Assembly: GCA_035758545.1 (NCBI GenBank)
Contig: DASTWQ010000073.1
Span: 7,274 to 71,273 of the forward strand
Direction: 5' to 3'
DNA length: 64,000 nt
From: Holophagaceae bacterium
Lineage (GTDB): Bacteria > Acidobacteriota > Holophagae > Holophagales > Holophagaceae
Below the pieces are notes generated by a model. The model saw only the letters and a list, made by a program, of their open reading frames with translations, ran no database searches and was not told the origin of the DNA. Both the position numbers and the translations under genes were made by a program. Numbering within the stretch: the first letter of the stretch is position 1; each line of letters opens with the position of its first letter. Shown one piece after another: positions 4,364 through 25,947 of the stretch.

Positions 4364-5134
4364 TCAGAGCCGCCGGAGGACCCGCTCGATGGAGACCGCC
4401 TTCCGGCCCTCGGTGGTCACGAGGACGGCGTGCAGCTGGAGGTCCCCGGAGGCGACCTCGTATTTCGCGCGGAGGGGCCCGAGGAAGCGGGCCAGGCTCG
4501 CCTCCTTGCGCATCCCGATGACGCCCTCGTAGGGGCCCGTCATGCCGATGTCCGTGACGTAGGCGGTGCCGCCGGGCAGCACCTTGGCGTCCAGGGTGGG
4601 CACGTGGGTGTGGCTTCCCACCACCGCCGCCGCCCGGCCGTCCAGGTGCCAGCCCATGGCCTGGGCCTCGCTCGTGGCCTCCGCGTGCATGTCCACCAGC
4701 ACGAGGTCGGCGCGCTCCTTCTGGAGGAGGGCGTCCACGCAGCGGAAGGGGTCGTCGCAGGGGGGCATGTGGACCCGGCCCATGAGGTTCACCACCAGGA
4801 CCTCCTCCCCGGAGCGGGTGTGGAGCTTCGCGAAGCCTTGGCCTGGGGTGGACGGCGGGTGGTTCGCCGGCCGCAGCAGGCGGGGCTCCTGCCGGAAATA
4901 GGCCTCGATGCCCTTCACGTCGAAGGCGTGGTTGCCGGTGGTGATGACATCCACGCCGAGCTCCCCGAACCACTGGCGGGCGATGGCCTCGGTGATCCCG
5001 TGGCCGTGGGCGGCGTTCTCGCCGTTCACCACGACGAAGTCCAGCGCCAGCTCCCGCCGGAGCACCGGCAGGTGCGCTTCCAGGAGCCGGCGCCCCGGCT
5101 CGCCCACCACATCGCCCAGACAGAGGATCCGCAT
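4364..5134 (-). CDS. ymdB: YmdB-family metallophosphoesterase (2',3'-cyclic-nucleotide phosphodiesterase)
   Basis: MRILCLGDVVGEPGR, NGENAAHGHG, GNHAFD, DMHAEATSE and GSHTHVPT are collinear with Bacillus YmdB. Confidence 0.9.
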   Translation of the reverse strand: MRILCLGDVVGEPGRRLLEAHLPVLRRELALDFVVVNGENAAHGHGITEAIARQWFGELGVDVITTGNHAFDVKGIEAYFRQEPRLLRPANHPPSTPGQGFAKLHTRSGEEVLVVNLMGRVHMPPCDDPFRCVDALLQKERADLVLVDMHAEATSEAQAMGWHLDGRAAAVVGSHTHVPTLDAKVLPGGTAYVTDIGMTGPYEGVIGMRKEASLARFLGPLRAKYEVASGDLQLHAVLVTTEGRKAVSIERVLRRL

Positions 5135-5150
5135 CCCTCCAGGCTAAAAG

Positions 5151-5177
5151 AAAACGGGCGGCTCGCGCCGCCCGTTT
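5151..5177 (-). terminator. rho-independent terminator after the TonB-dependent receptor gene
   Basis: On the minus strand: ACGGGCGGC-GCGA-GCCGCCCGT followed by TTTTCTTTT. Confidence 0.6.
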
Positions 5178-5196
5178 CCGTGGTCCTTCGCGTGGA

Positions 5197-8097
5197 TCAG
5201 AAGCTGAACCGCGCGCCCAGCTGCACCTGGCGGCCGGAAGGGAAGCCACCCACGCCCTGGGACGTGCTCAGCAGGGGATTGCCGTCATTGCTGGTCTTCG
5301 CGACGACATCATAGGTGTACTGATTGTGGTCGTTGAAGACATTGAAGACGTCGGCGCTCAGGGTGAGGGCCAGCTTCCGGGTGAATCGGAAGGCCTTGCG
5401 GAGGCCGAGATCCACGTAGGTGGTGGAGCCGTACCGGAAGGCGTTCCGGCCGGAATCCATGCCGTTCACGTAGAAGCGGTCGTTGCCGAAGATGCCGTCC
5501 TTGTTCAGGTCGCTGCCATAGGTGAGGCTGTAGGGCGATCCGGAGGCATATTTCACGGTGGTGCTGAACTGGATGCCGGTGTGGCGCTCCAGGTAGCTGA
5601 CGTAGCCGGTGACCACGTCGCGGCGGTCCGTGTCGGCGTAGCCCCAGTCGCCGCCCAGATTCTGAGTGTTCTGGGTGGAGTAGCTGGAGAAGTTCCGCTC
5701 GTTGGAGTCGTTGTCCTTGTTCGTGGAGCGGGTGTAGAAGAGCTGGGCCTCGAAGGGGCTGCCCTCCTGGTGGAACTTGGCGCTGAAGGTCAGGGCGTGG
5801 TACCAGCTCTCGACATCCGAGGTGTAGGCCATGATCTGCTTGTAGGCCGTGTTCGGGCGGACCGTCGGGAACACCTCGCGGCCGGCGGCGTTGGCGGTGG
5901 GCGTGCCCAGGTTCAGGTCCCTCAGGCGCTCCAGGTTCACGGCGTGCGCCGCGGCCCACTCCAGGCCCAGGACCCAGCCCCCGAAGGCGCGCTCCGCGCC
6001 CAAGCTCAGGCGGTCGGTGCGGGGGTTCTTGAAGTTCTGGTCGAAGGTGAAGACGTTGGTGGTGGGGATGGTCGCGCCCGTCGGGAAGGACGAGAAGGAG
6101 AAGGGATTGGCGGCGTTGAAGGCGCCGTTGATCGGAATCCCGAAGGTGGCGGCGTCGCCGGGGAAGAAGGACACGGAGGCGCCGCGGTAGCTGTTCGCCG
6201 CGAAGACCTGGTAGAGGAACACCGAAGGGGTCCGGCTGATGTAGCGACCGCCATTGAGGCGGACAACCGTCTTGCTGCCTTCTCCGCCGGGGGTCCAGGT
6301 CAGGCTGAACCGGGGCGAGAAGCCGCTGTCATTGGGGATCTTCGAGGTCAGGGGCAGGGGATTCGCGAGAATGTTGTTGGTGTCGAGGATCGGGAAGTCA
6401 GGATGCTCCTGACGGTCCCAGCGAAGACCCAGGCCGAACTTCAGGTAGTCATTCAGGCGCTGATCGAACTGCACAAAGGCCGCCATCTCCTTCTCGGAGG
6501 CGTCGAAGGTCCCCGCCTGCTTGGCGGTGAGGCCGTTGAGCCCGAAGAACTGCTGATAGCTGGACCAGGCGCCGTTCTCAAAATTGGTGAGGCTGGTGAA
6601 CCGGTAGCCGCCGGCGGAGAAGGCGGCGAACGTCTCGGAGACCTTGGTGTTGTTGTAGTCGATACCGGCCTTCAGCTGCGAGGTGGCGGTGACGAAGGAG
6701 AGGGTGTCCTTCAGCTGGGTGCGCTTGGTCTCGAATTCGCGGGTGAAGGGGTAGGTGCCGTAGTAGCTCGTGTTGGAGCCGTTCTGGCTGATCTGCACCT
6801 GGGGCAGGGTGGAGTGCGCTTCGCGGGGCAGCTCGTCCTTGACGTAGTTGACCTCGGCCTCGTTGAACCAGTTGGCGTTGATGGCCCAGTTCCACTGGAC
6901 CACGCCCTGGAGGGTCTTCACGTCATCGGAAGCGGTATTGCTGTACCCGGTGGAGATGCCCGTGCTGGTGAGGCCCTGGAACTTGGAGTAGTTGATGCGG
7001 AACTGCAGGGCGTGGTCGGCGTTCACGATCCAGTCGATGCGGCCGAAGGCGGTGTCGGAGTCCGACTTCTTGTCGTAATTCCCGCCCTGGGCGATCAGGG
7101 CCGCGTCATTGGCATTCGCGGGATTGAGGGTCAGCGGGTTGTCCTGGCCGCCCCAGATCTGGGTGATGGGCTCCGTGCGGCGCTGGCCGTCATAGACGAA
7201 GAAGTAGAAGAGCTTGTCCTTGATGATCGGGCCGCCCACGGAGAACCCGAACTGGTTCTGGGTGAAGTCGCCGATCTGCTTCTGGCTCCCGTTGATGACA
7301 GGCTCGTTGGCGATCATGTCCTTGGGGCGGGTGTAGAAGAAGACGCTGCCGCCGAAGTCGTTGGTGCCGCTCTTGGTGATGGCGTTCACGTAGCCGCCGC
7401 CCATGCGGCCGTACTCCGCGGAGGCGCCGTCGGTGACCACCTGGTACTCGCGGATGGCCTCGATGCTGACGGTGAAGGGGGTGGTGCCCTCGGCGGCGCC
7501 GGTCTGGCCGCCGAAGAAGGGCTCGTCCACGTCGCCGCCGTCGATCTGGATGGCGGTGTTCACGCCGCGCTGGCCGGCGATGGCCAGGTTGCCGCGCTGG
7601 TTGTCGACGATCACCTGCGGGGCCGAGGTGGCCAGGCTGGTGAAGGAGCGGTTCAGGACCGGCAGGTTCTGCAGGGCGTCGGGGTTGATGATGGCGGCCT
7701 GGGTGGCGCGCTCGGCGTCCACGGGGGCGGCCTGGGCGACCACCTCGACGGTGGCCACGGACTCGGCGGCCAGCTTCACGTTCAGGGGGGCGGCATCGCC
7801 GAGGTTCAGGTTCTCGTGGATGTTCGACGCAGTCTGGTAACCAGGCTTCGACACCGTCACCGCGTAGGGGCCGACAGGCAGGTTGACGGCGAGGTAGCGG
7901 CCGTTGCCGTTGGTCTGGACGACGCGGGTGAAGCCGGTCTCGTCGTTGCGGATGGAGATGGTGGCGTCAGCGAGCGGCTGGCCATTGGAATCGGTCACCT
8001 GGCCGGCGAGCTGGACGTTGACGCCCTGGGCCGCGAGGGGGGCGGCGGCGACAAGCAGGGCCATCAGGGCCGAGCCCTTCAAATGCCTCATGGTCAT
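5197..8097 (-). CDS. TonB-dependent outer-membrane receptor with CarboxypepD_reg-like N-terminal domain
   Basis: Signal peptide; VTDSNGQPLADATISIRN...GRYLAVNLPVGPYAVTVSKPGY (carboxypeptidase-regulatory fold); a long beta-barrel region ending in QLGARFSF. The start was chosen at MTMRHL because GGAGGA lies 7 nt upstream. Confidence 0.85.
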   Translation of the reverse strand: MTMRHLKGSALMALLVAAAPLAAQGVNVQLAGQVTDSNGQPLADATISIRNDETGFTRVVQTNGNGRYLAVNLPVGPYAVTVSKPGYQTASNIHENLNLGDAAPLNVKLAAESVATVEVVAQAAPVDAERATQAAIINPDALQNLPVLNRSFTSLATSAPQVIVDNQRGNLAIAGQRGVNTAIQIDGGDVDEPFFGGQTGAAEGTTPFTVSIEAIREYQVVTDGASAEYGRMGGGYVNAITKSGTNDFGGSVFFYTRPKDMIANEPVINGSQKQIGDFTQNQFGFSVGGPIIKDKLFYFFVYDGQRRTEPITQIWGGQDNPLTLNPANANDAALIAQGGNYDKKSDSDTAFGRIDWIVNADHALQFRINYSKFQGLTSTGISTGYSNTASDDVKTLQGVVQWNWAINANWFNEAEVNYVKDELPREAHSTLPQVQISQNGSNTSYYGTYPFTREFETKRTQLKDTLSFVTATSQLKAGIDYNNTKVSETFAAFSAGGYRFTSLTNFENGAWSSYQQFFGLNGLTAKQAGTFDASEKEMAAFVQFDQRLNDYLKFGLGLRWDRQEHPDFPILDTNNILANPLPLTSKIPNDSGFSPRFSLTWTPGGEGSKTVVRLNGGRYISRTPSVFLYQVFAANSYRGASVSFFPGDAATFGIPINGAFNAANPFSFSSFPTGATIPTTNVFTFDQNFKNPRTDRLSLGAERAFGGWVLGLEWAAAHAVNLERLRDLNLGTPTANAAGREVFPTVRPNTAYKQIMAYTSDVESWYHALTFSAKFHQEGSPFEAQLFYTRSTNKDNDSNERNFSSYSTQNTQNLGGDWGYADTDRRDVVTGYVSYLERHTGIQFSTTVKYASGSPYSLTYGSDLNKDGIFGNDRFYVNGMDSGRNAFRYGSTTYVDLGLRKAFRFTRKLALTLSADVFNVFNDHNQYTYDVVAKTSNDGNPLLSTSQGVGGFPSGRQVQLGARFSF

Positions 8098-19294: not shown

Positions 19295-19843
19295 ATGCTT
19301 CGCAGCGATGGCAGGCAGGTGACGCTGAAGCAGGATCGTTTTCACCTGGACCGGGTCTGGAAACGAGAACCGGAGCCTGGAACCGTCCAGTACTACTTCG
19401 GGTGGCGCACATCCGTCGCTCAGGCCCTACGTCTGCTTGAGCCAGATACCGACTTCACTCTTACGGACATCGGAATGTGGGGGGATCTAGGCTGGATCGA
19501 CCTGAAGCGAGTACCAAGCCTCCAGACGGTTGGAGAGGCGCTCGATTGGCTGCTGAGCCATCCGGATCACCATTCGGACCTGGTCAATTTCGATTGCCGG
19601 ATCGCCGGTGAATTTGACCTGTGCAGCCATGATGATGCAGAGGTGACACTGCAAGGACCCGCGGGTGAGTTGATCGAGAGATGGGCGGGTGCTCTGTTCC
19701 TCAGCCGTGGATTTGAAGCCACGATGATGCTGAATCTCATGCAAGAGAATCTCGGGAAGTGCATTGCGATAGAGGCGCCGTCCCAGATCCTAGGGATCTA
19801 CGAGACCCTCGATGAATGCAATGAGGCTCATCCAGAGAAGTAG
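19295..19843 (+). CDS. hypothetical acidic protein in a low-GC patch
   Basis: 182-aa ORF with clearly lower GC than its flanks and no competing antisense ORF. I recognise no family. Confidence 0.55.
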   Translation: MLRSDGRQVTLKQDRFHLDRVWKREPEPGTVQYYFGWRTSVAQALRLLEPDTDFTLTDIGMWGDLGWIDLKRVPSLQTVGEALDWLLSHPDHHSDLVNFDCRIAGEFDLCSHDDAEVTLQGPAGELIERWAGALFLSRGFEATMMLNLMQENLGKCIAIEAPSQILGIYETLDECNEAHPEK

Positions 19844-19918
19844 GACTGGGACCAGCGTGTCTCCGTGGATCTCCGCTCCTCCGCGGCCTCCGCGTAAGTT
19901 GTTTTCGCCCCTGAAGAT

Positions 19919-20347
19919 TTATTTTCCTTCGTCCGCCCGCACCACGAGCACGTCGCAGGGGGCGTGGCGGACCACCCGGGCGGCGGTGCTCCCGAAGAGG
20001 AGGCGGGCCAGGGCCGTGTGGCCCACCTGGGCGACGACGAGGAGGGTGTCCGGGCCGCAGGCGCTGACCAGCTCCTCCGCCGGGGAGCCCCAGACCACCT
20101 TGGTTGCGGCCCCCGGGAGAGCCTTCACCCAGTCCGCCAGCTGCTCCCGGGCCTGCTCCTCCAGGCTCTGGAGCCAGGCGGGGTCCGGCAGGGCGATCTG
20201 GGCCTCGGGCAGGAGGGGCGCCGGGGGCTGCAGCACGTGGAGGGCCGTGAGGGGCACGCCCAGGCGGCTGGCCCAGGCGGCGCCCCGGTCCAGGGCCAGG
20301 CGGCTGGCGGCGGAGAAGTCCACGCCCACGAGGACGGACTGGATCAT
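19919..20347 (-). CDS. universal stress protein (UspA family)
   Basis: MIQSVLVGVDFSAAS ... LLFGSTAARVVRHAPCDVLVV. Confidence 0.85.
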   Translation of the reverse strand: MIQSVLVGVDFSAASRLALDRGAAWASRLGVPLTALHVLQPPAPLLPEAQIALPDPAWLQSLEEQAREQLADWVKALPGAATKVVWGSPAEELVSACGPDTLLVVAQVGHTALARLLFGSTAARVVRHAPCDVLVVRADEGK

Positions 20348-21155: not shown

Positions 21156-22004
21156 ATGGCCCCCCGCGCGATCCGCACCCTCGTCACCGGCCGGCCCACC
21201 CAGGACGGCAACGGCGTGCCCCTCACCCGGGTGCTGCCGAACCCCGCCCTGGGCCGGCTGGACCCCTTCCTCATGCTGGACCACTTCGGCCCGCTCACGC
21301 TGCCGCCCGGCAGCGACGCGGGCTTCCCGCCCCATCCCCACAAGGGCTTCATGACCTACACCTACCTGGTGCAGGGCGCCTTCCGCCACCGGGACAGCCG
21401 CGGCGGCCACGGCCTCCTCGCCCCCGGCGGCGCCCAGCTCATGGTGGCGGGCCGCGGCATCGTCCACGAGGAGATGCCCGTGCCCGAACATCTCGAGACC
21501 GGCGGCGCCATCGAAGGCTTCCAGCTCTGGATCAACCTGGCCAAGGCCCACAAGGGCATGGAGCCCGGCTACACGGACCTGCCCGCGGAGGTGCTGGCCT
21601 GGCGGCCCATCCCCGGCGGCCGGCTCAAGGCCCTGGCGGGATCCTGGCTCGGCGAGGCGGATCCCATCTCCGTGCCCACGCCCTTCGCCTACGCCCATGT
21701 GGAGCTGGAGCCCGGCGCCCGCTTCGACCACCCGATCCCCGCGGGCTGGAACGCCGCGGTCTTCGTGCTGGAGGGCGCCGCCTCGATCGCCGGCGGGACC
21801 GCCGGGAAGGACCAGCTCGCGGTGCTCGACACGGAGGGCGACCTCGTCCTGGAGGCGCCCGAGGGCGCCGCCGTCCTCGTCTTCGCGGGCCAGCCCCTGA
21901 ACGAACCCGTCGCCCAGTACGGCCCCTTCGTCATGACCACCGAGGCCGAGCTGGAGCAGGCCTTCCAGGAGTTCCGCCGCGGGGCGATGGGCTCCCTGCA
22001 CTGA
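21156..22004 (+). CDS. pirin family protein (two-domain)
   Basis: GFPPHPHKGFMTYTYLVQG..HRDS and QLWINL. Confidence 0.9.
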   Translation: MAPRAIRTLVTGRPTQDGNGVPLTRVLPNPALGRLDPFLMLDHFGPLTLPPGSDAGFPPHPHKGFMTYTYLVQGAFRHRDSRGGHGLLAPGGAQLMVAGRGIVHEEMPVPEHLETGGAIEGFQLWINLAKAHKGMEPGYTDLPAEVLAWRPIPGGRLKALAGSWLGEADPISVPTPFAYAHVELEPGARFDHPIPAGWNAAVFVLEGAASIAGGTAGKDQLAVLDTEGDLVLEAPEGAAVLVFAGQPLNEPVAQYGPFVMTTEAELEQAFQEFRRGAMGSLH

Positions 22005-22027
22005 CCTTCAGGAAGCCGCGCTTCGGG

Positions 22028-22216
22028 CTACTTCGAACGTGCCCAGACCAGCGCCACGATGGCGCCGCCAAGACACATACCGGTGCCGATGAGATGCACG
22101 AAATCCACCGCTCGAATTTGGGCGAGGGTCGGGCGGGCGAGCATGCTGACAAGGCCTAAGAGACCAAAACCTGCGAGTACGAAGGCGACCCGAAGGGATT
22201 CACGGCGTGAGCTCAT
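22028..22216 (-). CDS. small two-TM hypothetical protein
   Basis: MSSRRESLRVAFVLAGFGLLGLVSML...GTGMCLGGAIVALVWARSK contains two hydrophobic helices. An alternative start at 22276 is possible. Confidence 0.45.
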   Translation of the reverse strand: MSSRRESLRVAFVLAGFGLLGLVSMLARPTLAQIRAVDFVHLIGTGMCLGGAIVALVWARSK

Positions 22217-22336
22217 GGATGAGCACCCCTCAAGCGTGGTGGATGGGAAGTCGGAACGATAGGTGCTGCCTAACACCCGGCATGTAGCCGGCGCCTGCAG
22301 TTTTGCGCGCGTCGGCTACTTGCCAGACATTAGCCG

Positions 22337-23137
22337 TCATTGTTTATCTTCTCGCGAGCGTCTCAGCGCCTGGGCTTCATTCAGAATGTCTTCACGCGCT
22401 TCCCGCTCAAAGTTCTCAAGCTTGAGGCGCTCGAAGCCTTCAGGGTTGCGCTCGCAGTGATAATGATGGTGACGCATACGCGCCTCTTCTGCTTCCCTTT
22501 GCGCCTCCGCCTTCGACTTTGGCCACTTACCCATAAGCCGAAGCGCTTTTTCTACAGCTTTATATAGGCTGTAAATTAGCACTATGACGCCCAGCCAGTC
22601 ACTCCACCACTCAAGAATCGCGACGCATGCTGGAACCAGTGCGGCCCAGGCGAAAACGATCCACCACCCTAGGCGCAGGTGCTTTGCTTTCTCCAGGGCT
22701 TGCCCCCGCAGGTGCTGCTTGGTCCTAAACGGAATACCGGCGTAGATCCTTTTGAGGTACGAGACGTCGAGCGCATTCTTGGGGAGCTCATCGTTCGTTA
22801 GCAAGCGCCATTCAGAAATTATCGCATTTGTCTTGGCGTCAAAGTATCCAATCAGGTGGCTGCAGGACCGGTAACTTTCAAGGCATATTAGGCTTCCTGT
22901 GTCATCGAAAGCAGAGACCATGATCGGTACTGGGTATCGCTCCAACCATGCGACTAGTTCTGTCTCCATCGTCGCTGCAATGTCTTCCGGCGCTTTGGCC
23001 ATATCGAGAACGACAATCTGGACTGTTGCAAATTGGTGCCCTGAGATCGGCGGGTGGTATTCAACGAAGTACCAGCCTCGGTCTTCTTTCGTTGCATCGA
23101 AGAACAGCTGATGCGTCTCCGGCATTGGAATGCCCAT
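22337..23137 (-). CDS. hypothetical protein: soluble N-domain, 2-TM hairpin, charged His-rich C-terminal helix
   Basis: 266-aa ORF in low-GC DNA. TM hairpin LGWWIVFAWAALVPACVAILEWW / WLGVIVLIYSLY. C-terminal KAEAQREAEEARMRHHHYH...REAREDILNEAQALRR. Confidence 0.65.
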   Translation of the reverse strand: MGIPMPETHQLFFDATKEDRGWYFVEYHPPISGHQFATVQIVVLDMAKAPEDIAATMETELVAWLERYPVPIMVSAFDDTGSLICLESYRSCSHLIGYFDAKTNAIISEWRLLTNDELPKNALDVSYLKRIYAGIPFRTKQHLRGQALEKAKHLRLGWWIVFAWAALVPACVAILEWWSDWLGVIVLIYSLYKAVEKALRLMGKWPKSKAEAQREAEEARMRHHHYHCERNPEGFERLKLENFEREAREDILNEAQALRRSREDKQ

Positions 23138-23231
23138 AATGACGGCTAACGGTGGTAGTAAGTGGATCCGCCGCGACGCGGTGGGGTCCGCTTGGGAGAT
23201 AGGTTAGGCATTTGAGCCTCGCCGAATTTGA

Positions 23232-23693
23232 TTAACCCTGACGATCTTGATTGCCTTCTGTATTGGCAGAGCTATTCGTAGAGATGCTCTTAGAAATAGC
23301 AAACCCTGCCACAGCAGAGAGGATCGGCAACCCCGCTTCTGCGCTGATTGCCTTGGTGAGGAGGAGTAAGGCAAGGATGATTACAATCAATACGGCAACA
23401 ACAACCTGCAGGTAAGTAGTCCAAAATTCGTTCCGACGCAGGAGAAAGTCTTTGTTTGAATCAACAAAATGCCTCGGCAGATTCGCACGAAATCCAATGC
23501 CCGACGCGTAATTGAGGAATCGATCCATGATTTCCATCCATTCATATCGACTGCCAAGGATGGATTGATCGGCGAGGTATCTCCCAAAGCGGAAGATGCA
23601 CCAAAGCGCAAACGTGCCGATGAAAAGTACGATGGTGCAGTACCAGGTGGTTGGTGACTCGAACCAGGTCATTACTCGATCTCCTTGTTTCAA
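23232..23693 (-). CDS. hypothetical membrane protein (about 3 TM)
   Basis: 153 aa. Hydrophobic segments WYCTIVLFIGTFALWCIF, YLQVVVAVLIVIILALLLL and GLPILSAVAGFAI. Low-GC codon usage. Confidence 0.6.
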   Translation of the reverse strand: MKQGDRVMTWFESPTTWYCTIVLFIGTFALWCIFRFGRYLADQSILGSRYEWMEIMDRFLNYASGIGFRANLPRHFVDSNKDFLLRRNEFWTTYLQVVVAVLIVIILALLLLTKAISAEAGLPILSAVAGFAISKSISTNSSANTEGNQDRQG

Positions 23694-23728
23694 TTTTGAG
23701 TTGAGACAGCACGCATCATCCAGATGCT

Positions 23729-24373
23729 TTACTTTCGACGAGAGCGGCGGCCTTGAGACCGCCCAGCGGACTCAAAGACGTCCGCCCGACGGAGGGGTTG
23801 GGCGTCGGGCTCATCGTGAACGAGGATTCCGCCAGAGGACGAGTGAAGGTGGTCCGATTCGTGGAGACCGAATAGGCCGCCGAGGTAAACCATGAGTGCT
23901 TGGAATCGGCCTTTAGCCTGGAAAACCCACTCGCGGTTGATCGACTTGTACCACTCAGGTTGGAGTGCATCACCAAGCACCATCTTCTCCGGTTCGGCCT
24001 GGTCTGACAGCTTCGGTCCGAGAACACGCTCCGGTTTGCCATGGGCCAGCTTGTCTCTCAACCGAAAGACCTCGGTTGCAAACTGAAGAGGCTCTTGACC
24101 CCAGTTGGGATCGCATCCGGCGGTGGTATGGAGGACATTTACCTTCGACTTCCACGACAGCCGCTCTATCTCGTCCCAAAACGGAATCGCTCGGGCACCG
24201 AGCGAGTTGAGGTATGACTCGATCGAGAATGCAATAAAGACGACGACCGGTGCCAACGGCAAACGCACTTGATCATCTCGTTCAAGCAGGCCGTACATGG
24301 ACATCAGTGCGCCTACTGACCTGCTCTGTGCGGTGAAATCTGAGAAGGCCTGGTAGTAGCGCATGTACGGCAT
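23729..24373 (-). CDS. HEPN-like putative RNase
   Basis: 214 aa. FRLRDKLAHGKP matches the HEPN R-x4-H motif (R[ND]xxxHG form). An upstream helix IAFSIESYLNSLG carries a conserved-type acidic residue. The start was set at the compositional switch; the ORF-track extension to 25333 is antisense to rarA. Confidence 0.6.
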   Translation of the reverse strand: MPYMRYYQAFSDFTAQSRSVGALMSMYGLLERDDQVRLPLAPVVVFIAFSIESYLNSLGARAIPFWDEIERLSWKSKVNVLHTTAGCDPNWGQEPLQFATEVFRLRDKLAHGKPERVLGPKLSDQAEPEKMVLGDALQPEWYKSINREWVFQAKGRFQALMVYLGGLFGLHESDHLHSSSGGILVHDEPDAQPLRRADVFESAGRSQGRRSRRK

Positions 24374-24498
24374 TCTGACGCCTAACTTTGAAATAGGCGA
24401 ACAGGTTGGTGGAGGGCCAATCCAACCTGACACGGTCGCTCGGGTGGGTGTGAAGGATCTTTGCGGCTTAGGATAGCCGCAGCAGGCGGGCCGGAGCC

Positions 24499-25947
24499 TC
24501 AGTCGCCGTCCTTCGGCTCCGCGATCAGGGCGCGGCGGAGGGTGAAGCGGGGGCCGCCCAGGCGGGCGAGGGCGCGGGCGAGGGCCTCGCGGCTGCAGGC
24601 CAGGTCGGCGGCCCAGGCTTCCATCGGGAGGGTGCCGCCCTCGGGGTGATCGGCCACCCAGGCCTCCCACAACGCGCCGAGCCGGGCGGTGTCGGGTTCT
24701 TCGCGGTCGCGCCAGCTGCGCTCCTGGGGGCGGATGGGCTGGTGGAAGCGCTCGCCCTGCAGCCGCTCCGGCAGGAAGGCCTGGGGCTTGTCGTAGTCGC
24801 TGTGGGAGTAGTGGTAGCCCTCGCCGCGGCCGGCCTTGCGGGCGGTGGCGGTGTGGGCGTCGCGGATGGCGTCGGGGATGGGCGCGTCCTCGGCGGCCAG
24901 CGCGGCGTCGATGGCGGTGATGGTGGCGTTGCTCTTGGGGGCGTTGGCCACGTAGATGACGGCCTGGGCCAGGGGGATGCGGGCCTCGGGCCAGCCGATC
25001 TGCTCCACGGCGCGGCTGGCGGCCTCGGCCAGGAGGAAGGCCTGGGGATCGGCGTTGCCCACGTCCTCCGCCGCCGTGACCATCAGGCGCCGGGCGATGA
25101 AGCGGGGGTCCTCGCCGCCGCGGATCATGCGGGACACGTAGTAGAGCGCGGCGTCGGCGTCCGAGCCCCGCAGGCTCTTCTGGAAGGCGCTGGCCAGGTC
25201 GTAGTGGCCGTCGGCGCGGTCGAACATCATGCGCCCGCCCAGGGCGTTCTGGAGCGATTCCAGGTCCGGCGCCTCCATGCCGAGCCAGATGTCCAGGCCC
25301 GACAGCGCGGACCGCAGGTCGCCGCCGGCCCACTGGGCCAGCCAGTCGAAGGCCTCGGAGGGCTGCGGCGCGCCGGGCCGCTCCTGGGCCCAGGCCCGCT
25401 GCAGCACCGTCCGGATGCTGGCGGGCTCCAGCCCCTTCAGGGCGATGAGCGTGCAGCGGCTGCGGAGCGCGGGGTTCAGGTAGAAAGCTGGATTCTCCGT
25501 GGTGGCGCCGATGAGCACCGCCTCGCCCCGCTCCAGGAAGGGCAGCAGGATGTCCTGCTGGGCCCGGTTGAAGCGGTGGATCTCGTCCAGGAAGATCACC
25601 GGCGCCGCGCCCTTGAAGAGGGGCATGGAGGCCTGGTCCAGGAGGAACTTCTTCAGCTCCGCCGCGGAGCCCGTGACGCCGCTGAACTCCACGAAGCCCC
25701 GGCCCGCCTGCTCCGCGAGGATGCGGGCGAGGGTGGTTTTGCCGGTGCCCGGCGGGCCCCAGAGCACCATCGAGGGCAGCCTCCCCCCGGCCGTCAGCCG
25801 CGACAGCGCCCCCTTGGGCCCCAGCAGGTGGTCCTGCCCCACGACCTCGTCGAGGGCCTTCGGGCGCATGCGTTCGGGGAGCGGGGCGGCGGGGATCAAG
25901 CGGTACCTGGGAATTCCCAGCTTAGCGGCGGGAGGAGGCCCCGGCAC
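24499..25947 (-). CDS. rarA: replication-associated recombination protein A (AAA+ ATPase)
   Basis: PERMRPKALDEVVGQDHLLG, Walker A GPPGTGKTT, Walker B IFLDEIHRFN, and ATTENP. Confidence 0.9.
   Translation of the reverse strand: MPGPPPAAKLGIPRYRLIPAAPLPERMRPKALDEVVGQDHLLGPKGALSRLTAGGRLPSMVLWGPPGTGKTTLARILAEQAGRGFVEFSGVTGSAAELKKFLLDQASMPLFKGAAPVIFLDEIHRFNRAQQDILLPFLERGEAVLIGATTENPAFYLNPALRSRCTLIALKGLEPASIRTVLQRAWAQERPGAPQPSEAFDWLAQWAGGDLRSALSGLDIWLGMEAPDLESLQNALGGRMMFDRADGHYDLASAFQKSLRGSDADAALYYVSRMIRGGEDPRFIARRLMVTAAEDVGNADPQAFLLAEAASRAVEQIGWPEARIPLAQAVIYVANAPKSNATITAIDAALAAEDAPIPDAIRDAHTATARKAGRGEGYHYSHSDYDKPQAFLPERLQGERFHQPIRPQERSWRDREEPDTARLGALWEAWVADHPEGGTLPMEAWAADLACSREALARALARLGGPRFTLRRALIAEPKDGD

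Follow-up and report, generated by a model that had tools for sequence, protein, structure and literature searches.

The 64,000-nt stretch of Holophagaceae bacterium DNA analyzed here (GenBank assembly GCA_035758545.1, contig DASTWQ010000073.1; hereafter the window) carries, between rarA and a pirin-family gene, a minus-strand gene whose small product contains an R-x4-H motif of the kind that marks HEPN ribonucleases. Judged by its boundaries, the gene is a promoterless integron gene cassette, and its product belongs to a protein family that is very probably part of the HEPN superfamily. The family itself appears to be undescribed, being unmodeled in Pfam, NCBIfam, PADLOC and PHROGs and without a solved structure. 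On balance, we favor the interpretation that the gene encodes a self-contained, latent HEPN ribonuclease (RNase) with a core of ~188 residues, acting in abortive infection or as a toxin, and representing an undescribed family carried as a promoterless integron cassette. The family thus appears new, although its kind (HEPN RNases, single-gene cassette forms included) is already known.

A preliminary description of the window had reported an orphan 214-residue protein, and the elements that it named are all present: the minus-strand open reading frame (ORF) at 23729..24373 opens MPYMRYYQAF, contains the R-x4-H segment FRLRDKLAHGKP and closes GRSQGRRSRRK. An ATG at 24364 (MRYYQ), three codons downstream, is nonetheless the more likely start, because homologs begin M-x-x-Y-Q and the database gene call is of 211 residues. 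The compositional switch that had been used to place the start near 24373 is real, the GC content falling at ~24450 from ~0.74 in rarA (the pirin gene has a similar value) to 0.57 in the HEPN-like coding sequence and 0.55 over 22005-24498 as a whole. The ORF delimited mechanically is longer (534 residues, 23729..25333) and does include 320 codons beyond 24373, as described earlier; these do not run antisense to rarA, however, but form an alternative frame of its sense strand, because rarA also lies on the minus strand. Residue numbers given for R106, H111, E52 and N56 refer to the 214-residue form, and those of the structural model to the 211-residue form (R103, H108). The codons of R106 and H111 lie at 24058-24056 and 24043-24041, and that of E52 at 24220-24218, within the upstream helix segment IAFSIESYLNSLG.

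The presence of an R[ND]xxxH pattern alone is weak evidence, because 3.8% of shuffles of the window protein contain one (0.29% with the trailing Gly); its weight stems from invariance across the family. In three family alignments, comprising 24 close (A1), 45 mixed (A2) and 78 mixed and diverse (A3) sequences, R106, H111 and N56 are invariant throughout, while E52 shows no variation in A1 or A2 and is kept in at least 90% of A3. This invariance persists down to a mean column identity of ~16%. The residue after the Arg is Asp or Asn across the whole family, and the Gly after the His is also retained; in the published HEPN motif, a polar residue (N, D or H) directly follows the Arg (PMC3710099). 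Distant members conform to the consensus FxAFxxEAYLNHxG ... LFxFRNxLAHGK, and comparison of the window's close subfamily with the distant one by hhalign gives a probability of 99.95% (E 9.5e-38), with RDKLAHGK aligned on RNxLAHGK.

Profile searches with the relatives point to the same superfamily. When 108 distant members were scanned singly against Pfam at E<=0.01, 21 matched HEPN_RiboL-PSP (PF18735; best E 4e-6, 27.3 bits), 13 matched HEPN_MAE_28990 (PF18737) and two matched HEPN_Cthe2314 (PF18730); each remaining Pfam family was matched once only. The short HEPN matches center on the R-x4-H segment. The family consensus matches HEPN_RiboL-PSP at E 2.3e-5 and HEPN_Cthe2314 across residues 47-175, which is nearly the whole domain, and HEPN_Apea yields a single sub-threshold match in the family (E 0.058). 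On these profile comparisons, the family is placed just outside the present Pfam models, nearest to the RiboL-PSP/MAE_28990 branch, and by their thresholds it is a member of neither. Anantharaman et al. 2013 described the RiboL-PSP and MAE_28990 families as distantly related to AbiD/AbiF (PMC3710099). They resemble the present family in an R-[ND]-x3-H-G type motif that closes helix 3 and in an acidic/polar pair in helix 2, but their L-PSP fusion and their ParB, ParA or methylase operons (PMC3710099) are absent from it, its members being shorter (~188 residues) and solitary.

An AlphaFold2 (AF2) model built from the 78-sequence alignment (predicted local distance difference test, pLDDT, 89; predicted template modeling score, pTM, 0.80) places helices at residues 12-29, 38-59 (holding the Glu/Asn pair), 93-108 and 144-163. 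An insert occupies 63-81, helix 93-108 finishes exactly at R103...H108, and a long linker leads to the last helix. HEPN domains are defined by an R-x4-6-H motif at the end of helix 3, an acidic residue in helix 2 and an insert between helices 2 and 3 (PMC3710099), and the predicted structure matches this description in the place of the motif, the acidic residue and the insert. The acidic residue that the preliminary description had assigned to the first HEPN helix is therefore present as E52, and conserved, but it lies in the second core helix. A Foldseek search of the Protein Data Bank (PDB) with this model returned as its top match the HEPN toxin of a HEPN-MNT complex (8xeh_D; probability 0.91, E 0.24, target template modeling (TM) score 0.55, query TM 0.37, root-mean-square deviation 4.8), and the other matches with a target TM of 0.46-0.59 (8xdj, 8yuf, 1ylm, 1wwp, 1wty) are all HEPN proteins. 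These MNT-associated toxins, which have a four-helix core bearing R-x4-H, are its best structural matches; they differ in that no MNT gene stands beside the family in any locus and that sequence similarity between the two is not detectable. The modeled protein also has a larger insert between helices 2 and 3, a linker of ~35 residues between helices 3 and 4, and β strands at its N- and C-termini. An earlier AF2 model, made from the 24 close sequences, had a pLDDT of 77.7 and gave meaningless Foldseek matches, and a viral fold search against BFVD returned nothing.

Inspection of the gene's boundaries indicates how it is carried, and its identity as an integron cassette is the chief addition to the earlier HEPN reading. 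The related loci (L numbers below) were gathered with alignment A1. A GTTAGGC heptamer, which corresponds to the R' core of an attC site, lies just upstream of the window gene; of 38 independent loci of the family, 10 have this heptamer at a distance of 9-31 nt before the start, and similarity between loci stops upstream of it. At the opposite end of the gene, an R'' box (RYYYAAC) occurs at the equal aligned position in seven loci (L006, L010, L013, L014, L015, L016, L019) and about one codon off in L020 and L023. The box takes the forms GCCTAAC, GCTTAAC, GTCTAAC and ACCTAAC, and in nine out of nine loci the TAA within it is the stop codon of the gene (as in GAT GCC TAA C, read ...D-A-stop). 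Canonical attC sites of 59-103 nt are complete in L019, where the site lies 3' of the family gene, and in L033 and L034, where such sites flank it. IntI-like genes adjoin the family gene in L017 and in L013, the one in L013 being 50% identical to IntI1; tblastn with an IntI1 query sequence was positive in these two loci and in L061.

In the window copy, the stop codon inside the R'' box has been lost. The three closest homologs read TAA, TAA and TAG at the codon that in the window is CAA (Gln192), and the frame therefore continues through the attC hairpin to a TAA within the degenerate R' box (GTAAAGC). The basic C-terminal tail singled out in the preliminary description is thus present in the sequence but is not a feature of the family protein: it consists of 23 residues of translated attC, QPLRRADVFESAGRSQGRRSRRK. 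These residues are predicted to be disordered (pLDDT 57-67), and the tail is probably without function. Two other members, P0024 and that of L017, are likewise extended C-terminally by reading into or through attC, the P0024 tail SSFHRGDVL resembling QPLRRADVF of the window; from these sequences, the in-box stop codon appears to have been lost more than once in the family.

The protein is not the orphan it had been taken for. A word-indexed search with it found 238 homologs at E<=0.01, nearly all of ~188 residues and none with a Pfam domain or an informative name, and a full profile search, run against 1.84 billion cluster representatives, gave 968 at E<=1e-3, 228 of them at E<=1e-10. The resulting ~970 clusters at 50% identity fall in Proteobacteria, Nitrospirota, Acidobacteriota, Planctomycetota, Verrucomicrobiota and Rokubacteria; hosts in a scan of one genome per species include Polaromonas, Nitrospira, Syntrophobacteraceae, Zetaproteobacteria, Rokubacteria, Pseudomonas, Stenotrophomonas, Opitutaceae, Planctomycetota, Methylomonas and others. 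So scattered a distribution, as it appears from these searches, is typical of horizontally moving genes. A plasmid search gave four matches only, all distant. Against an 86%-identical homolog, the ratio of nonsynonymous to synonymous substitution rates (dN/dS) is 0.08 at a dS of 0.85, indicating strong purifying selection on the protein.

Examination of the surrounding genes revealed no partner. All-against-all BLAST of ORFs of at least 50 residues within 3 kb of ~38 independent loci found no shared neighbor, and an MNT or NTP_transf_2-type gene neighbors the gene neither in the window, as the preliminary description had already stated, nor in any other locus examined. Neighbors instead vary by contig and include an integrase, a resolvase fragment, HigBA modules (near the homologs of L006 and L015), DUF2442, thioesterases, a Lit-like peptidase with phage genes, and housekeeping genes. 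Homologs of the 146-, 266- and 82-residue ORFs of the window are found near no family member. The 266-residue neighbor was rejected as a partner, none of its 65 loci holding a HEPN-family member even by profile search. Among distant members, P0292 (196 residues; L109 4001-5043) is followed by an overlapping 150-residue ORF and lies ~2.5 kb from type III CRISPR genes (Cas10, CARF protein); the wider family may accordingly include some branches organized as two-gene units. This 150-residue ORF was rejected as a counterpart of the window's 146-residue ORF, to which it is unrelated.

A few contexts have a mobile or defensive character. The sole viral-contig homolog (L042 828-5311, IMG/VR) occupies one end of a predicted prophage, where its neighbors are a phage integrase and a DndB-like gene; such a position is typical of an accessory or defense slot. 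A P4-type integrase adjoins the homolog of L003, and a Lit-like peptidase that of L011; the integrase, DndB-like, Lit-like and CRISPR surroundings are anecdotal pointers toward defense. In Pseudomonas (L021, L024), a serine recombinase (resolvase/invertase-like) gene immediately precedes the family gene, which shows no cassette signature; the family therefore moves on other mobile elements too.

If the HEPN assignment holds, the protein would be a metal-independent endoribonuclease leaving 2',3'-cyclic phosphate ends, as expected of HEPN domains with an intact motif (PMC3710099). It would probably work as a homodimer, with an active site to which E52, R106 and H111 would jointly contribute; HEPN biochemistry suggests His111 as the general base and Arg106 as the residue that would stabilize the transition state (PMC3710099). 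How such a protein could be tolerated with no antitoxin can be put forward more cautiously. Weak expression might keep it harmless: the gene would have no promoter of its own (no promoter-like site was found in 21800-24700) and no clear ribosome-binding site (no clear Shine-Dalgarno sequence is seen in the short leader after GTTAGGC), and would receive at most read-through from rarA, such transcription being possible because no terminator-like site lies between the two co-directional genes. Alternatively or additionally, it may stay latent until an infection cue, by analogy with ApeA; once cued, it might cleave host tRNA, rRNA or mRNA, leading to growth halt and abortive infection.

ApeA is a single-protein HEPN anticodon nuclease that is activated by deoxydinucleotides and latent until infection (10.64898/2026.01.26.701840). 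As an autonomous HEPN effector without an antitoxin, it suggests one way in which a cell might tolerate a HEPN protein on its own, but it has a β-rich N-terminal sensor domain of ~300 residues and forms large ring oligomers, whereas the window family is a bare 188-residue domain. Closer in genetic setting are two Vibrio cassettes: Esos, a HEPN-only cassette of the Vibrio cholerae superintegron with measured anti-phage activity (10.1101/2024.07.02.601686), and HNPBCG_15845, an AbiU2-like cassette of V. mimicus that protects against T4 and T7 (10.64898/2026.03.17.712381), for both of which growth arrest or abortive infection has been proposed. Integron cassettes are in general rich in compact defense genes (10.1101/2024.07.02.601719). 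The likeness of the window gene to Esos and HNPBCG_15845, drawn from their description, lies in a single small HEPN-like-only ORF that forms an integron cassette with no partner; they reside in a Vibrio superintegron, in contrast to an integrase-less array of an acidobacterium. The PDB 3jrt family (PMC3710099 Table 1) likewise represents a HEPN domain that is carried on a mobile integron cassette; no PDB chain matches our family in sequence, however, and 3jrt falls outside the top 50 Foldseek matches, so the two appear to be separate families.

By its recombination-site signatures, the interval 22005-24498 is an integrase-less array of four cassettes, of which the HEPN-like gene is the first (Table 1). 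We take this arrangement to fit the usual definition of a "CALIN" in IntegronFinder terminology. A both-strand scan of the whole window for paired R''/R' boxes with a stable hairpin returned only 23144-23209 and 22268-22335, both exactly between ORFs; a strict attC box scan alone discriminates weakly (one match in the island versus two elsewhere), and it is with the fold-pairing requirement that just these two island sites are left. GTTAGGC occurs four times in the 64 kb, three times within the 2.5-kb island and once at 579-585 on the minus strand. The attC of cassette 2 folds at -12.2 kcal/mol as the bottom strand versus -6.5 kcal/mol as the top strand. No intI was detected in the window, either by tblastn at E<0.2 with the IntI1 query sequence or by a tyrosine-recombinase motif scan. 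A classical genomic island is not supported, the window having no tRNA gene, integrase or flanking direct repeats, and an Rfam scan of the window returned nothing.

Table 1. Coordinates of the HEPN-like gene, its cassette boundaries and the neighboring features in the window.
Feature	Position	Strand	Remarks
Coding sequence of HEPN-like protein	23729..24364	minus	211 residues; alternative ATG 24373 gives 214 residues
R106-D-K-L-A-H111-G112 codons	24038..24058	minus	R-x4-H motif; C-terminal end of core helix 3
E52-S-Y-L-N56 codons	24206..24220	minus	invariant Glu/Asn pair; core helix 2
GTTAGGC, attC R' core (GTTRRRY)	24380..24386	minus	5' boundary (G/TTAGGC) of HEPN cassette; 16 nt before ATG 24364
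GCCCAAC, R'' box inside coding sequence	23797..23803	minus	CAA (23800-23798, Gln192) in place of the homologs' TAA/TAG stop
Decayed attC of HEPN cassette	23726..23803	minus	imperfect hairpin; degenerate R' GTAAAGC (23732-23726); translated as QPLRRADVFESAGRSQGRRSRRK
Cassette 2, 146-residue protein	23232..23672	minus	2-3 hydrophobic segments; own AAGGAG ribosome-binding site; unrelated to HEPN family
attC of cassette 2, GCCTAAC ... GTTAGCC	23144..23209	minus	66 nt
Cassette 3, 266-residue protein	22337..23137	minus	two hydrophobic segments; own family, 65 metagenome loci
attC of cassette 3, GGCTAAT ... GTTAGGC	22268..22335	minus	68 nt; fold z -3.1 and -3.7
Cassette 4, 62-residue protein	22028..22216	minus	two hydrophobic segments
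rarA (replication-associated recombination protein A; MgsA_C + AAA)	24499..25947	minus	upstream host flank; same strand as HEPN-like gene
Pirin-family gene	21156..22004	plus	convergent with array; other host flank

Each of the three ORFs downstream of the HEPN-like gene has at least two hydrophobic 19-residue segments, in agreement with the earlier mention of membrane-protein neighbors; they are unrelated cassettes rather than partners, however, and scans with Pfam, PADLOC, NCBIfam and PHROGs gave nothing usable for them. The 266-residue protein begins with a soluble domain, contains two hydrophobic segments and ends in a charged, His-rich stretch (MRHHHYHC); it belongs to an unannotated family whose 65 metagenome loci (L043-L107) show 32-82% identity, with an IntI-like fragment near L061. 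A perfect 12-nt inverted repeat around its ORF (22330-22341 and 23138-23149) reflects pairing between the attC that precedes the cassette, at its R' end, and the cassette's own attC, at its R'' start. For the last cassette, a start at ATG 22216 is more likely than the GTG at 22276 that opens an 82-residue ORF, because the GTG falls within the preceding attC.

The window rarA is 92% identical to that of a Holophagaceae metagenome-assembled genome, in which the rarA-pirin gap (L108 6227-6880) contains a ccdA/ccdB pair of high GC content with no obvious attC boxes; in an 88% relative (JGI 3300050821 contig), the gap is empty and 447 nt long. The differing content of the gap in these relatives indicates that the island is strain-specific and that this gap is variable in Holophagaceae. 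From the rarA stop to the cassette boundary, an interval of 112 nt (24387-24498) contains a strong hairpin, CAGGTTGG...CCAACCTG, and no recognizable R'' box; it may be a remnant upstream attC or an attI-like site. Elsewhere in the window, a second low-GC dip at 19295-19950 (0.56-0.58 versus ~0.73) covers a 182-residue plus-strand ORF (19295..19843) with no Pfam match; an attC scan of this interval found nothing, and the dip may mark further foreign DNA. Positions 1-2000 and 5000-8000 have a lower GC content of 0.62-0.67, with an unusually strong AT skew of +0.27 at 1-2000 and a GC skew of +0.22 at 6001-7000.

Several results weigh against the interpretation of the gene as a latent, cassette-borne HEPN RNase of abortive infection. 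The window protein itself matches no Pfam, NCBIfam, PADLOC or PHROG model at E<=10, including the PADLOC-DB models for the Abi/HEPN defense families (AbiV, AbiU2, AbiD/F, AbiJ, ApeA), and this absence of a HEPN-clan match is overturned only through its relatives, so that the HEPN assignment offered in the preliminary description gains its support indirectly, from the invariant residues, the helix order, Foldseek and the Pfam matches of distant homologs. No HEPN match in the family reaches the curated Pfam cut-off (best 27.3 versus 28.4 bits, for PF18735), and searches of PDB sequences with A1, A2, A3 and the member P0166 found no relatives. As to the four-helix HEPN bundle that had been expected, the AF2 helix order and insert fit and a HEPN toxin heads the Foldseek list, but Foldseek gave no PDB match at E<0.1 and the query-normalized TM is only ~0.4. 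As to defense, phage records contain no family match, several homologs lie in housekeeping-gene surroundings (L010, L112), and the proposed role draws on analogy and scattered context. Finally, the R' box of the window attC is degenerate and the window has no integrase; the window copy may therefore be immobile and poorly expressed.

This last point leads to an alternative that concerns the window copy and is compatible with the family-level interpretation, namely that the gene is silent or decaying cargo, an immobilized cassette of no use to the cell. The lack of an IntI gene in the 64 kb and of a promoter-like site in 21800-24700, the degenerate R' box, the ORF reading through attC and a close relative without the island all speak for it; yet the ORF is intact, retains every invariant residue and shows a dN/dS of 0.08 to its nearest homolog, and transcription could still arrive from the co-directional rarA with no terminator-like site in between. 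We consider decay unlikely, though with an appreciable chance of being right, and it bears on this copy only and not on the function of the family.

Somewhat less probable, in our estimation, is that the protein acts as a selfish toxin, or is what remains of a toxin-antitoxin (TA) module, stabilizing cassette arrays without any anti-phage role, its antitoxin having been lost, residing elsewhere or being an unrecognized small ORF or RNA. HEPN toxins are usually paired with MNT or other antitoxins (PMC3710099), and the best structural matches of the model are MNT-associated toxins; TA modules are, moreover, common in integron arrays and occur near some homologs (HigBA, L006 and L015), and ccdAB occupies the same rarA-pirin gap in a relative. 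What argues against such a toxin is that ~38 independent loci share no conserved neighbor ORF of at least 50 residues, that the cassette boundaries enclose a single ORF with a 5' leader of 16-31 nt, leaving no space for a second gene, and that a dN/dS of 0.08 across phyla is not expected of an unopposed constitutive toxin.

We assign only a slim chance to a genuine HEPN fold with a role outside defense, whether as a niche RNA-processing or stress RNase or as a non-toxic ligand- or RNA-binding protein. HEPN domains do also take part in the maturation of RNA or act as binding modules that lack catalysis (PMC3710099), two homologs (L010, L112) stand amid housekeeping genes and no PADLOC model is matched. 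However, the strict conservation of the Arg, the polar residue, the His and the Glu predicts an active RNase in HEPN families, and a patchy occurrence across phyla, on cassettes, integrase islands and a prophage end, suggests an accessory conflict gene rather than a housekeeping one. It is very unlikely that the protein is an unrelated helical one whose R-x4-H serves another purpose (metal or ligand binding) and whose matches reflect generic helical similarity: although no curated threshold is reached, every Foldseek E is at least 0.24, 3.8% of shuffles contain R[ND]xxxH and the terminal β strands of the model are atypical of minimal HEPN domains, the sole recurrent Pfam families in the 108 relatives are three of the HEPN clan (36 family-level matches, all centered on the motif), the best per-sequence E of 4e-6 is significant for the size of the library, and the HEPN definition is matched by the order of the helices, the site of the insert and the positions of the Glu and R..H.

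The latent HEPN RNase of a cassette-borne family thus remains the interpretation that we prefer. A bolder form of it, which we advance tentatively and at less than even confidence, is that these proteins constitute a new anti-phage cassette family of minimal (~188-residue), autonomous HEPN RNases that would sense and abort infection with no partner and have spread as cassettes over at least seven phyla; if so, they would be among the smallest self-contained HEPN effectors. At the level of the family, the analysis adds a sizeable unannotated group to the HEPN superfamily and ties it to integron cassettes, and a bare HEPN domain tolerated without an antitoxin provides a simple system for asking how such nucleases stay inactive. 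The read-through of attC shows a recombination site turning into coding sequence, which calls for caution when odd basic tails on cassette proteins are annotated. For the Holophagaceae genome, the picture is now that of a four-cassette, integrase-less array in a variable rarA-pirin gap, rather than an orphan gene beside membrane proteins.

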